Positions 12,787 through 52,460 of a stretch of 64,000 nucleotides of DNA are shown piece after piece. A program made the position numbers and the translations under genes. The stretch is from Streptosporangiales bacterium (GTDB lineage Bacteria; Actinomycetota; Actinomycetes; Streptosporangiales; WHST01), in contig WHTA01000006.1 in assembly GCA_009379825.1 (NCBI GenBank), positions 65,858 through 129,857 on the forward strand, read 5' to 3'. How positions within the stretch are numbered: position 1 is the first letter of the stretch; each line of letters begins with the position of its first letter. The notes under the pieces are model-generated. The model was given only the letters and a program-made list of their open reading frames with translations. It had not been told where the DNA came from and did not search any database.

Positions 12787-13406
12787 ATGACTGTCATGAC
12801 CGTCCAGGACACGGTGACCATTGGCGAGTTGCAGGCGTACCCTCCCGACGCGATCGTGCAGATCGTCGAAGGCACGATCTACCTCAGCCGCGCCGGAGGC
12901 TTCGACGTAGCGGACCTCGACGAGCTGCCCGACGACCGGCGCCGGCACGAGCTGGTCGACGGAGTCGTCGTCTTGAGCCCCGCGCCCCGCCGCATCCACC
13001 AGCGCGGTCTCCTCGAACTCGCGAGCGCACTACGCGCCGCAGCGCCCGCACACCTCGAGGTCGTGGTTGCCCCGTTCGATGTGGACGCCGGTCCGCGTAG
13101 CCAGGTGGAACCGGACATCCTCGTGCTCCCCGCGACAACCGCGACGGTCCGGTTCCGCCGCCGCTGCTCGCCGTCGAGGTGTTGTCACCGTCGAACCGCG
13201 GCTACGACCTGGTGACCAAGCGCAACCTGTACGAGCGCGCTGGCGTGCCTTCGTACTGGATGCTCGACCCGGACGAGCCCTCGGTCACCGTGTTGGAGCT
13301 CGGCGACGACAGCACCTACACCGCGGCGGCCACGGTGACCGGTGTCGGTGTCGTCGCGGTCGAGCAGCCGGTCGAGGTGACTTTCCGACCGACCGACCTG
13401 GTCTAG
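12787..13406 (+). pseudogene. Uma2-family (DUF820) endonuclease, interrupted by a 1-nt frameshift
   Basis: The N-terminal part is in frame 1 (to ...EPDILVL). The C-terminal part is in frame 3 (PPLLAVEVLSPSNRGYDLVTKRNLYERAGVPSYWMLDP, the Uma2 core). The frames rejoin if one C is added to the CCCC run at 13129-13132. Total length is 620 nt (3n+2). Confidence 0.7.
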
Positions 13407-15703
13407 CCGAACAGGCCGGGCAGCGTGCCCGTGGACGCTTCGCGCAGCTGCGCCAGCGAGACCTCGAACAGCGGGGTGCCGTCCAGGTCGGCCTCGTGCT
13501 CGCGGAAGCGCAGCGCGTCGCCGGTTACCGCGCCGAGGTGCTCGTACGGGAGGCTCAGCTCACGGCAGTGCCGGATGAACTCGTGCTCGGCGTCGCCGCG
13601 CAGCGCTACGAGCACCCGGCCGCTCGACTCACTGAACAGGGCGACGAACGGGTCGATGCCCGCCGGCAACGCGACGGTTGCGCCGCGACCGCCGGCCAGG
13701 CAGCTGTCCACCAGCGCCTGCGACAGCCCGCCGTGCGACAGGTCGTGCGCCGCCTGCGCCAGGCCGCCGCCGGTCAGCCGCTGCATCAGCTCGCCGAGCG
13801 CCCGCTCGACCGCCAGGTCGACCAGCGGCGGCTGACCACCGAGGTGGCCGTGCTCGACGTGCGCCCACACCGACCCGCCGAGCTCCTCCCTGGTCGTGCC
13901 CACCAGGTAGAGCAGCAGGTCGTCCTCGGGGAAGCCGACGGGCAGCCGGTCGGTGACGTCGTCGAGCACGCCGAGCACGCCGACCACCGGGGTGGGGTGG
14001 ATCTGCTGCTCCCCCGTCTGGTTGTAGAAGCTCACGTTGCCGCCGGTCACCGGCGTGCCCAACGCCAGGCAGCCGTCGGCGAGGCCGCGGACGGTCTCGG
14101 CGAACTGCCACATCACGCCGGGCTCCTCCGGGGAGCCGAAGTTCAGGCAGTCGGTGACCGCAACCGGCCGGGCGCCCTTGACCGCCACGTTCCGGTACGC
14201 CTCGGCGAGCACCAGCTGCGCCCCGACGTACGGGTCGAGCGCGCAGTACCTGCCGTTGCCGTCGAGCGCGAGCGCGACGCCGAGCCCGGACTCCTCGTCC
14301 ACCCGCAGCACGCCGGCGTCGTCCGGCGTGGCGAGCACGGTGTTGCCGAGCACGTACCTGTCGTACTGGTCGGTCACCCAGTCCTTGCTCGCGAGCTCCG
14401 GCGACCCGACCAGCCGCTGCAGGGTCGACCGCAGCTCGTCGCCGGTGGCGGGCCGCGGCAGCACCACCGGGTCGTTCGCCCGGCTGACGTCGAGCGCGGA
14501 CGGTCGCTCGTACGGCCGCTGGTACACCGGCCCCTCGTGCGCGACGGTGCCAGGCTCGACGTCCACAATGGTCTGCCCGTGCCAGCTGATCCGCAGCCGG
14601 CCGCCGTCGGTGACCGTGCCGACGACGGTCGCCTCAACCTCCCACTTGGCGCAGGTGGCCAGGAACGCGTCGACGTTGGCCGGCTCGACGACCGCCATCA
14701 TCCGCTCCTGCGACTCGCTCATCAGGATCTCTTCCGGCGTGAGCGACGGGTCGCGCAGCGGCACGTCGTCGAGTACGACGTCCATGCCGCCGGTGCCCGC
14801 GGACGCGAGCTCGCTGGTGGCGCACGACAGGCCGGCGGCGCCGAGGTCCTGCAGGCCGACGATCAGCCCGGCGCGGAACAGCTCGAGCGAGCACTCGATC
14901 AGCAGCTTCTCGGTGAATGGGTCACCGATCTGCACGCTCGGCCGCTTCGCCGGCTTGCCCTCGCCGTCGAACGTCGCCGACGCGAGCACCGACGCGCCGC
15001 CGATGCCGTCGCCGCCGGTCTTCGCGCCGAACAGCACCACCTTGTTGCCCGGGCCAGGTGCCTTGGCGAGGGTGACGTCCTCGTGCCGCATCACCCCGAC
15101 GCACAGCGCGTTCACCAGCGGGTTGCCGAGGTAGCACGGGTCGAAAGACACCTCGCCGCCGATGTTCGGCAGGCCGAGGCAGTTGCCGTACCCGCCGACG
15201 CCGGCGACCACGCCGGGCAACACGCGCGAGGTGTCCGGTGCCTCGGCCGGGCCGAACCGCAGCGCGTCCATCACCCCGACCGGCCGGGCGCCCATGGCGA
15301 GGATGTCGCGGACGATCCCACCGACGCCGGTGGCGGCGCCCTGGTACGGCTCCACGAACGACGGGTGGTTGTGCGACTCCGCCTTGAACGTGACCGCGTA
15401 TCCCTGGCCGATGTCGACGACGCCGGCGTTCTCGCCGATGCCGACCATGAGCGCGTCGCTCGCCGGCGCCCGCTCGCCGAACGTACGCAGGTGCACCTTG
15501 CTCGACTTGTACGAGCAGTGCTCGCTCCACATCACCGAGTACATGGCCAGCTCGCTCGCGGTGGGCCGCCGGCCGAGGATCTGCTCGATCCGCTGGTACT
15601 CGTCCGCCGTCAGGCCGAGCTCGCCATACGGCAGCGCGACCTCGGGTGTCGCCGCCGCCCGCTCGACCGTGTCCAGCTGTTGCGCGTCCGTCGGCGCCGT
15701 CAT
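13403..15703 (-). CDS. purL: phosphoribosylformylglycinamidine synthase subunit PurL
   Basis: [27 protein letters not shown] and GGNVSFYNQ motifs. 766 aa. Confidence 0.95.
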
Positions 15704-15997
15704 GAAGCGGAGACCTCCACCAGTCGGGTCAGCACCGAGGCGTAGAACGGGAGCGCGACCTCGGGTGTTATCGCCGCCGCCCGCTCGACCGTGCCCAGCT
15801 GCCGCGCGACCGTCGTTATCGGCGCCGTCATCAAGCGGAGACCTCCACCAGTCGGGTCAGCACCGAGGCGAAGAACGGGAGCGCGACCTCGGGTGTCGCC
15901 GCCGCCCGCTCGACCGTGTCCAGCTGTTGCGCGTCCGTCGTCGCCGTCATCAAGCGGAGACCTCCACCAGTCGGGTCAGCACCGAGGCGAAGATCGG
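15631..15997. repeat. three tandem copies (120, 128 and 119 bp) of the purQ-3'/purL-5' junction
   Basis: Copies lie at 15631-15750, 15751-15878 and 15879-15997. The outer copies are near-identical. The middle copy carries several substitutions plus in-frame 3-nt and 6-nt insertions. The plus-strand ORF track also shows the same peptide three times. Confidence 0.9.
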
Positions 15998-16636
15998 CAG
16001 GCCGTCGGTGGTCGGGCCGGTCAGCTCGTCGACCGCGTGCTCCGGGTGCGGCATCAGGCCGACCACGTTGCCCGCCTCGTTGCAGACGCCCGCGATGTCG
16101 CGGGCGGAGCCGTTCGGGTTCACCTCGAGGTACCTGCCGACGACCCGGCCCTCACCCTCCAGCCGGTCCAGGGTCGCGTCGTCGGCGACGTAGCCGCCTT
16201 CCCCGTTCTTCAGCGGGATGACGACCTGCTGGCCGTCCGTGTAGCCGCTGGTCCACGCCGTGCGCGCGGTCTCGATCCGCAGCCGCTGGTCGCGGCAGAC
16301 GAAGTGCTGGTGGTCGTTGGCCACGAGCGCACCTGGCAGCAGGTGCGCCTCACACAGCACCTGGAAGCCGTTGCAGATCCCAAGCACCGGCAGCCCGCGG
16401 CCGGCCGCGGCGATCAGCGAGTTCATCACAGGCGCGAACCTGGCGATCGCGCCGCAGCGGAGGTAGTCGCCGTACGAGAAGCCGCCGGGGAGCACGACCG
16501 CGTCGACCCCGTGCAGGTCGTCGTCGCCGTGCCAGAGGGCGACCGGTTCTGCGCCGGCCAACCGTACCGCCCGGCGGGCGTCGCCATCGTCGAGCGACCC
16601 GGGGAAAGTGACCACGCCAACGCGAGGTGACGACAC
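15950..16636 (-). CDS. purQ: phosphoribosylformylglycinamidine synthase subunit PurQ (glutaminase)
   Basis: [19 protein letters not shown] (nucleophile Cys) and MPHPEH. GTG start at 16636. The rest of the 615-aa ORF is read-through. Confidence 0.9.
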
Positions 16637-16689
16637 CGAAGACTCCAGGCTCGGGATTGTGCGGACGCTCGCAGAGTACCGCGAGGACC

Positions 16690-16935
16690 TCACGGCTCGG
16701 CGCGGACGGTGAAGTCCTCGATCACCGGGTTGGCGAGCAACGTGTCGGCGATGCCGCGGACCCGTTCGAGCGCGGCGGCGTCGGCCTCGCCCTCGACCTC
16801 CAGCTCGAACCGCTTGCCCTGCCGCACCGACGTGACACCGGCGTGCCCGAGCCGTTCGAGCGCCTTCGCGATTGCCTGCCCCTGCGGATCGAGCAGCTCG
16901 GGCTTCAGCATGACATCGACCACGACGCGGGCCAT
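16690..16935 (-). CDS. purS: phosphoribosylformylglycinamidine synthase subunit PurS
   Basis: The 81-aa [22 protein letters not shown]... is typical of PurS. AGGAGA precedes ATG 16935. Confidence 0.9.
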
Positions 16936-52172: not shown

Positions 52173-52383
52173 CTGACCGACGAGAGCACGCCAGAGCGGC
52201 TCCGTCGGCCCGGTCGTGCGCAGCGGGACGAGCGGGCGTGGTCGTGTGGCCGACTACTCACCCGTCTCACGGTAGAACCGAAGAGCTGCCGGAACGGCCG
52301 ACCGCGTTCTGCCCTGCGCGAAGGAATCGGCCGGGGTCCCGTACCGTTCCCAGGGGTGATATTCGTTATCGTAGTTACCGACG

Positions 52384-52399
52384 GGTAACATCTACCCTG
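52384..52399. promoter_or_regulatory. palindrome GTTACC-gacg-GGTAAC in the XRE / Fe-S reductase divergent region
   Basis: 6-bp perfect arms within the AT-richest stretch of the intergenic region (GTGATATTCGTTATCGTAGTTACC...). A possible operator; function unproven. Confidence 0.3.
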
Positions 52400-52460
52400 G
52401 TGATGCGCTCCTGGCGTTGCTCTCCTGGCCCCGTTGGAAAGCTCAGGTGATCGTCCCGTG

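Follow-up and report, generated by a model that had tools for sequence, protein, structure and literature searches.

The boundary between purQ and purL is present three times, head-to-tail, on the minus strand of a 64,000-nt stretch of DNA from an uncultured Streptosporangiales bacterium (contig WHTA01000006.1, positions 65,858 to 129,857; hereafter the window, in whose numbering all positions are given). The array occupies positions 15628-15997 and inserts between the two genes, which encode subunits of the formylglycinamide ribonucleotide (FGAR) amidotransferase, two small chimeric open reading frames (ORFs), ORF1 and ORF2, each made of the head of purL and the tail of purQ. It is probably genuine, a tandem triplication of this gene boundary that is specific to the lineage, acquired in two steps and tolerated as a by-product of mutation. 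This reading is built on the anatomy of the array, its absence from the relatives examined, the ancestral purQ sequence at its joins and its fit with the parameters of the source assembly.

Anatomy of the purQ/purL array

Tandem Repeats Finder (TRF) reports a single array at these coordinates, with a period of 119 nt, 3.0 copies, 88% matches and a score of 596, and no other tandem repeat in the window scores 80 or more. By repeat search, the three junction copies start 128 and 119 nt apart, with no intervening sequence. The triplication claimed in a preliminary description of this DNA is thus borne out by the minus-strand sequence, TRF and an alignment of the copies alike; the GC content of about 73% given there is too high, as the window measures 70.7% and the array 70.8%.

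Each repeat unit comprises about 50 nt from the end of purQ, including a strong Shine-Dalgarno (SD) sequence, followed by the stop/start overlap and 25 purL codons. The first purQ segment of the array consists of the last 14 codons of purQ itself, whose 3' end reads GGC CTG CCG ATC TTC GCC TCG GTG CTG ACC CGA CTG GTG GAG GTC TCC GCT TGA; the A of this TGA is the first base of the ORF1 ATG at 15950, and ORF1 likewise ends in GCT TGA. The duplicated purL head (residues 1-25) stops where the first Pfam domain of PurL begins (residue 25). The successive junctions (purQ/ORF1, ORF1/ORF2 and ORF2/purL) read TGATG, TGATG and ATGA, corresponding to overlaps of 1, 1 and 4 nt, and the stop/start overlap is therefore kept at every copy, as had been described. 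A GGAGG stands 10 nt before the A of the ATG, identically at the starts of ORF1, ORF2 and purL, and the 30 nt preceding each of these three ATGs are the same but for one difference, TTG>TTC in the base next to the purL ATG. The frame changes from one ORF to the next: it is 0 for ORF1, 2 for ORF2 and 1 for purL, and purQ shares the frame of purL. Translation reproduces the two in-frame fusions of a PurL head to a PurQ tail, of 39 and 43 aa, reported earlier. Copy-specific markers in the array include the T of CCGTTCTTC at about 15875 and GATAAC at about 15815-15820.

Joins, divergence and comparison with relatives

Both joins of a purL head to a purQ tail read GCG CTC CCG TTC T..; the working purQ has GGC CTG CCG ATC TTC and purL has GCG CTG CCG TAT. 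At the join, GAGGTCGCG is followed directly by CTCCCGTTCT, which connects purL codons 23-24 to codon -14 of purQ. The 12-mer CTCCCGTTCTTC of the first join is found exactly in the purQ of the nearest relative (locus L081) and of five other loci. The Phe of the join corresponds to a position in the L-P-I-F stretch of purQ (15989-16000) that is occupied by Phe in 121 of 134 PurQ homologues, encoded by TTC in 114 of the 134. The working PurQ, whose tail is CTGCCGATC, has Ile at this position, and the repeat copies retain the ancestral Phe codon. Since the joins carry CTCCCGTTCT, an ancestral purQ sequence, the working purQ tail must have changed after the duplication, through CTC>CTG and TTC>ATC (F>I).

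As to the endpoints, purL GCGCTGCCGT and ancestral purQ GGCCTCCCGT share CT and CCGT (7 of 8 over CTSCCGT), a homology shorter than the at least 11 bp of verified Salmonella duplications (PMC3411829). The crossover would lie at or just before the CT, within this imperfect CT-S-CCGT patch. Microhomology at the repeat boundary had been proposed before in the form of a perfect CTGCCG; a short homology may still stand, but as the imperfect patch and probably as CTSCCG, given that the joins carry ancestral purQ sequence. Apart from one later TTC>TAC in join 2, the two joins agree over more than 30 nt, which points to the third copy having come from a two-copy state by unequal homologous exchange or slippage, and not from a second illegitimate event.

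The copies have diverged to different extents. The first purL-head copy carries one substitution (CCG>ACG, P4T) and the last purQ-tail copy carries two, TTC>TAC and TGA>TCA, an adjacent TGA serving as the stop after the latter. The middle purL-head copy differs by four substitutions and by insertions of 6 and 3 nt, so that its divergence and the in-frame nature of both indels, noted previously, are reproduced by the copy alignment. Both insertions create CGATAAC, 48 nt apart and each with an in-frame ATA, and they account for two of the three occurrences of this heptamer in the 64 kb. On the plus strand, GTTATCG is indeed present at both indels, but at 15767-15773 and 15815-15821, one base away from the positions first assigned to it (15766-15772 and 15814-15820). 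ATA represents 2 of the 43 codons of ORF2 and none of the 766 of purL. An origin of the middle purL head as the allele of a relative or as a copy of another locus was considered and ruled out: it is unlike the heads of the relatives, and no second copy or template of the diverged segment exists within the window. The third GTTATCG of the window lies elsewhere, in an AT-rich intergenic patch (52340-52400) together with the inverted repeat GTTACC-N6-GGTAAC (TAGTTACCGACGGGTAACATCTA); the inverted repeat looks like an operator site, and the patch is unrelated to the array.

The array was compared with a background panel of 162 loci from actinobacteria, together 821 kb, drawn from a PurQ scan of genome contigs, in which the closest identity among the matches listed was 79%. 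The closest PurL relatives, L081 (83% identity) and L082 (78%), are both metagenome-assembled genomes (MAGs), and each has a single purQ-purL junction; in L081, the stop of purQ and the start of purL are 2 nt apart, and in L082 the two genes overlap as ATGA. No long-period repeat crosses the purQ-purL junction in any of the 162 panel loci, and the junction is single in all 96 loci in which purL directly follows purQ. Among these 96 adjacent pairs, the two genes overlap by 4 nt in 67 and by 1 nt in 20 (87 together), indicating that the stop/start overlap is a conserved ancestral state that each repeat unit inherited. To judge from these sequences, the triplication is derived and lineage-specific, which agrees with its earlier interpretation as a duplication of one lineage and not a conserved element.

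Smaller repeats were also seen at the same place in other Actinomycetota. In-frame tandem duplications of 15-24 nt occur in the first purL codons of three panel loci: L001 (3672-3702), which belongs to Streptomyces sp. ODS28 and where the repeat is exemplified by MTEAHTTEAHTT, L002 (3659-3706) and L097 (2467-2515). The purL 5' head thus appears to be a recurrent and tolerated site of tandem duplication in Actinomycetota. These cases resemble the array in their location, their tandem and in-frame arrangement and in affecting the variable head upstream of the FGAR-AT linker; unlike it, they lie wholly inside purL, lengthen the protein, include no stop/start junction and create no new ORF. Two long-period repeats of the panel were rejected as related cases, neither being at a gene junction. 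The first, in the complete genome of Streptomyces sp. KM77-8 (L035, 6193-6540; 117 nt x 3.0, TRF score 633), follows purL at a distance of a few hundred nt, where all ORFs are GC shadows. The second, in Streptomyces sp. I05A-00742 (L059, 1485-1901; 113 nt x 3.7, score 725), is upstream of purS and adjoins a tRNA-Gly(GCC) gene; ARAGORN calls one tRNA there, so that the units are not intact tRNA genes.

Proposed origin and tolerance, and alternative explanations

Confirmed spontaneous duplications in bacteria have short direct homologies at their endpoints (PMC3411829). In a first step, an illegitimate duplication of this kind would have linked purL codon ~24 to purQ codon -14 at the imperfect CT-S-CCGT, producing a 119-nt unit that by chance fused both frames in phase. 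The repeats would then have gone from two copies to three through slippage during replication or an unequal exchange by homology, after which point mutations would have accumulated in the purQ tail (2), the first purL head (1), the last purQ tail (2) and the middle purL head (4 plus the insertions).

Such an array could be tolerated because each unit is a complete cassette, in which GGAGG is followed, 10 nt further on, by an ATG that overlaps the preceding stop. Ribosomes that finish purQ would reinitiate, or fresh ones would bind the SD, at ORF1, then at ORF2 and finally at purL. As the purL start retains its native context, unchanged over the ~50 nt upstream, expression of purL would be little affected and the two peptides would be by-products. 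Both purQ and purL are full length with complete Pfam domains despite the array, and the PurQ C-terminus has the same length as in L081 and L082. Translation of the mini-ORFs and translational coupling across the array are predicted from the sequence signals and from experiments in E. coli and Haloferax, in which 13 of 14 tested overlapping gene pairs were strictly coupled (Huber et al., 2019, PMC6728339), coupling collapsed at gaps of about 20 nt and termination-reinitiation needed no more than the final 15 nt of the upstream gene (Huber et al., 2023, PMC10666635). We infer the order of events, the translation of the mini-ORFs, their coupling and the near-neutrality of the array on these grounds.

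Several points weigh against a tolerated by-product of mutation. The divergence is very uneven, most of it being in the middle purL head as compared with 0-2 changes elsewhere, which is unlike simple neutral decay. The in-phase fusion (chance 1/3), the in-frame indels (chance ~1/9) and the rescue of the TGA>TCA change could hint at selection for open frames, in which ribosomes go on terminating at the overlaps; the array would then be less than fully neutral. The homology at the first join, as read from the sequence, is short and imperfect. Searches turned up no further genome or metagenome contig from this species, leaving one assembly of the population, and the copy number rests on k-mer logic. 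As to the cost of losing the frame, one idea was that ribosomes shifted within a mini-ORF would run on far into purL in a wrong frame. This holds only partly: in frame 0 they would meet a stop at 15731, and frame 1 is that of purL itself, so that a frameshift would not obviously be catastrophic.

The best surviving alternative, which we nonetheless regard as unlikely, is that purQ, ORF1, ORF2 and purL form a selected termination-reinitiation relay, or one with extra ribosome entry, that tunes PurL relative to PurQ. Within it, the two rare ATA codons of ORF2 might slow ribosomes, and selection would keep the frames open. It would account for the three intact SD/ATG/stop cassettes, for a fusion and two indels that are all in frame, for the rescue of a mutated stop by a tandem TGA and for the concentration of ATA in ORF2 through two insertions that share one heptamer; it would also suit the enrichment of overlaps among genes for heteromeric complexes, where stoichiometry matters (PMC10666635). 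However, the array is absent from every relative examined, and the region holds no alternative RNA structure, terminator, promoter or Rfam family. A ribosome stalled at the ATA codons would stand 65-110 nt upstream of the purL start, too far away to occlude it, the divergence between copies is too small to show conservation of the signals beyond chance, and the combined in-frame odds of ~1/27 are suggestive at most and were reckoned post hoc. A structured RNA, riboswitch or attenuator was ruled out: the predicted RNA fold of the region is no more stable than that of shuffled sequence (z=+1.32), and the region is without Rfam match, inverted repeats or promoter- or terminator-like sites. The mini-ORFs do not have the features of leader peptides either, as they are not conserved in L081, L082 or the panel and are accompanied by no alternative RNA structure or terminator. 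The broader proposition that the array is kept, be it as a selected relay that sets the PurL:PurQ ratio or for chimeric peptides that are newborn micro-proteins acting on FGAR-amidotransferase assembly, is quite improbable.

An origin of the copy number, or of the whole array, during assembly is very doubtful. The assembler would have walked a repeat loop, or stitched strain variants together, and the history of the data gives some reason to consider this. The source study dealt with a metagenome of Centrosaurus fossil bone and mudstone, sequenced as 2x150 Illumina reads and assembled with MEGAHIT (k-max 137) and SPAdes (k-max 77); the MAG comes from a co-assembly of three metagenomes and was re-assembled from recruited reads, and it is one of four Streptosporangiales bins in the study, so that three others share the data (PMC8067395). 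In addition, no other assembly covers the array. Exact matching of the PurL protein and of the two mini-ORF proteins (TTG or ATG as start) found none on record, the exact junction DNA gave 0 matches in metagenomes, and a search of metagenomes with the PurL head returned nothing closer than 73%. Only the exact PurS protein turned up again, on the 1.1-kb Logan contig SRR10173838_276598, from run SRR10173838 of the same fossil-bone and mudstone study; this contig matches 16290-17383 of the window at 100% identity and ends at 16290, 290 nt short of the array.

Against this stands the repeat structure itself. No two copies share an exact stretch of more than 61 nt, a length below either final k, and the region contains no repeated (k-1)-mers for any k of at least 63, which makes it an unbranched path at k of both 77 and 137. 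When simpler hypothetical haplotypes were built, with unit 1 alone, unit 2 alone or zero extra units, 20 77-mers and 80 137-mers of the assembled path proved unobtainable from any mix of them. The chimeric joins, moreover, could not have come about unless a duplication took place at least once; no co-occurring bin is nearer than 83% identity in PurL, too distant to share long k-mers; and the 64 kb hold no other tandem repeat. Because the 61-nt repeat is shorter than the final k and these k-mers are beyond the supply of simpler strains, an assembly artefact appears unlikely and the question largely settled, the earlier argument against it from the divergence of the copies being strengthened.

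Finally, that the chimeras are new functional micro-proteins, for instance modulators of the assembly of the FGAR-amidotransferase complex, is extremely improbable: both ORFs have strong initiation signals and are built from the conserved ends of two proteins that belong to one complex, but all six substitutions in the free segments are non-synonymous in the mini-ORF frames, to which three inserted codons are added, so that nothing suggests purifying selection on the peptides; neither ORF matches Pfam, is on record as a called protein or is present in the relatives, and no ORF2 homologue was found in a collection of 5.8 billion proteins.

The purS-purQ-purL cluster and likeness to known systems

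The array lies within a cluster in which Pfam identifies, in order, PurS, PurQ (GATase_5) and a small PurL (FGAR-AT linker and 2x AIRS/AIRS_C); this order and a flanking methyltransferase match L081 (Table 1). PurL is 100% identical to NCBI MQA02091.1. The preliminary description spoke of an essential operon: the cluster is there, but the purine pathway is only conditionally essential. A GC content at third codon positions (GC3) of 0.92-0.96 in the minus-strand genes is the signature of real genes in high-GC DNA; the plus-strand ORFs over the array (343, 279 and 892 aa), with GC3 of 0.71-0.88 and a high GC content at first positions, were dismissed as antisense shadows. Upstream, a spacer of 53 nt (16637-16689, minus strand) lies between purS and purQ, and the purQ GTG is preceded by GGAG; in L081, the two genes overlap by 1 nt, which suggests that remodelling in this lineage has reached the second junction of the operon as well.

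Table 1. Features of the array and of the purS-purQ-purL cluster, in window coordinates
Feature	Position	Strand	Basis
Tandem array, 3 junction copies	15628..15997	-	TRF, repeat search, copy alignment
SD GGAGG of ORF1, within purQ 3' end	15961..15965	-	motif position
Mini-ORF1, 39 aa, PurL 1-25 (P4T) + PurQ tail (last 14 codons); ATG overlaps purQ TGA	15831..15950	-	translation
Join 1, purL head to purQ tail, CTCCCGTTCTTC, ancestral purQ sequence	15870..15881	-	homologue comparison
SD GGAGG of ORF2	15842..15846	-	motif position
Mini-ORF2, 43 aa, diverged PurL head + PurQ tail; stop overlaps purL ATG	15700..15831	-	translation, alignment
GTTATCG (coding CGATAAC) from +6 insertion, in-frame ATA	15815..15821	+	motif search, alignment
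GTTATCG from +3 insertion, second in-frame ATA	15767..15773	+	motif search, alignment
Join 2, CTCCCGTTCTAC, equal to join 1 plus later TTC>TAC	15742..15753	-	copy alignment
SD GGAGG of the real purL	15714..15718	-	motif position
purS, 81 aa, first cluster gene	16690..16935	-	Pfam PF02700 PurS, E=3.4e-29
purQ, 228 aa, GTG start, stop TGA 15952-15950; glutaminase subunit	15950..16636	-	PF13507 GATase_5, E=2.5e-32; GC3 0.92
purL, 766 aa, formylglycinamidine ribonucleotide (FGAM) synthase subunit, ATG at 15703	13403..15703	-	PF18072 (residues 25-66), PF00586, PF02769; GC3 0.963

The array shares much with classical tandem duplication and amplification (PMC3411829): it is head-to-tail without spacer, one novel join fuses a distal to a proximal end, the flanking genes are intact, a chimeric ORF arises at each join and the extra copy has an identical join. 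Short homology may be involved as well. It differs in scale, with a unit of 119 nt instead of the usual kb to hundreds of kb, and in its endpoints, 25 codons into purL and 14 codons before the end of purQ, so that the gene boundary alone is copied; the homology is a CT within a 7-of-8 match and not one of at least 11 bp, and the copies have had time to diverge. The array in this sense adds a further example to a familiar class of events, small tandem duplications followed by expansion with chimeric ORFs at the join points, here located at a gene boundary predicted to be translationally coupled.

With known termination-reinitiation pairs (PMC6728339, PMC10666635), the array has in common co-directional ORFs, overlaps of 1 and 4 nt, an SD inside the upstream ORF and products that are subunits of one heteromeric enzyme, and the ~50 nt of upstream gene kept in each unit exceed the 15 nt found sufficient. 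Unlike those pairs, it would comprise three serial overlaps with two relay ORFs of about 40 codons, a serial arrangement that does not figure in those papers, and its coupling is predicted. The mini-ORFs also recall leader peptides and regulatory upstream ORFs, being short, abutting and overlapping a biosynthetic gene and, for ORF2, containing rare codons, with translation again a prediction; in contrast to these, they are not conserved, have no terminator or antiterminator and no run of pathway-relevant codons, and lie between two cistrons instead of in a 5' leader.

Known from one uncultured genome, the array is most probably an ordinary mutational by-product and does not reveal a new system or pathway. 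It is a case in which the documented k of an assembler serves as a gauge of how far a repeat in a MAG can be trusted, and one in which gene callers can miss the mini-ORFs or choose the wrong purL start. For the biology of such operons, it illustrates that a stop/start-overlap junction, with its SD, overlap and first codons, behaves as a portable module that can be copied in tandem inside an operon while both genes stay intact. The array is also a ready-made serial termination-reinitiation construct. Each copy of the junction automatically yields a well-initiated chimeric small ORF and is thereby plausible raw material for new small proteins. Were the array a selected relay, or its peptides micro-proteins, nature would here have turned a duplicated gene boundary into a functional module.

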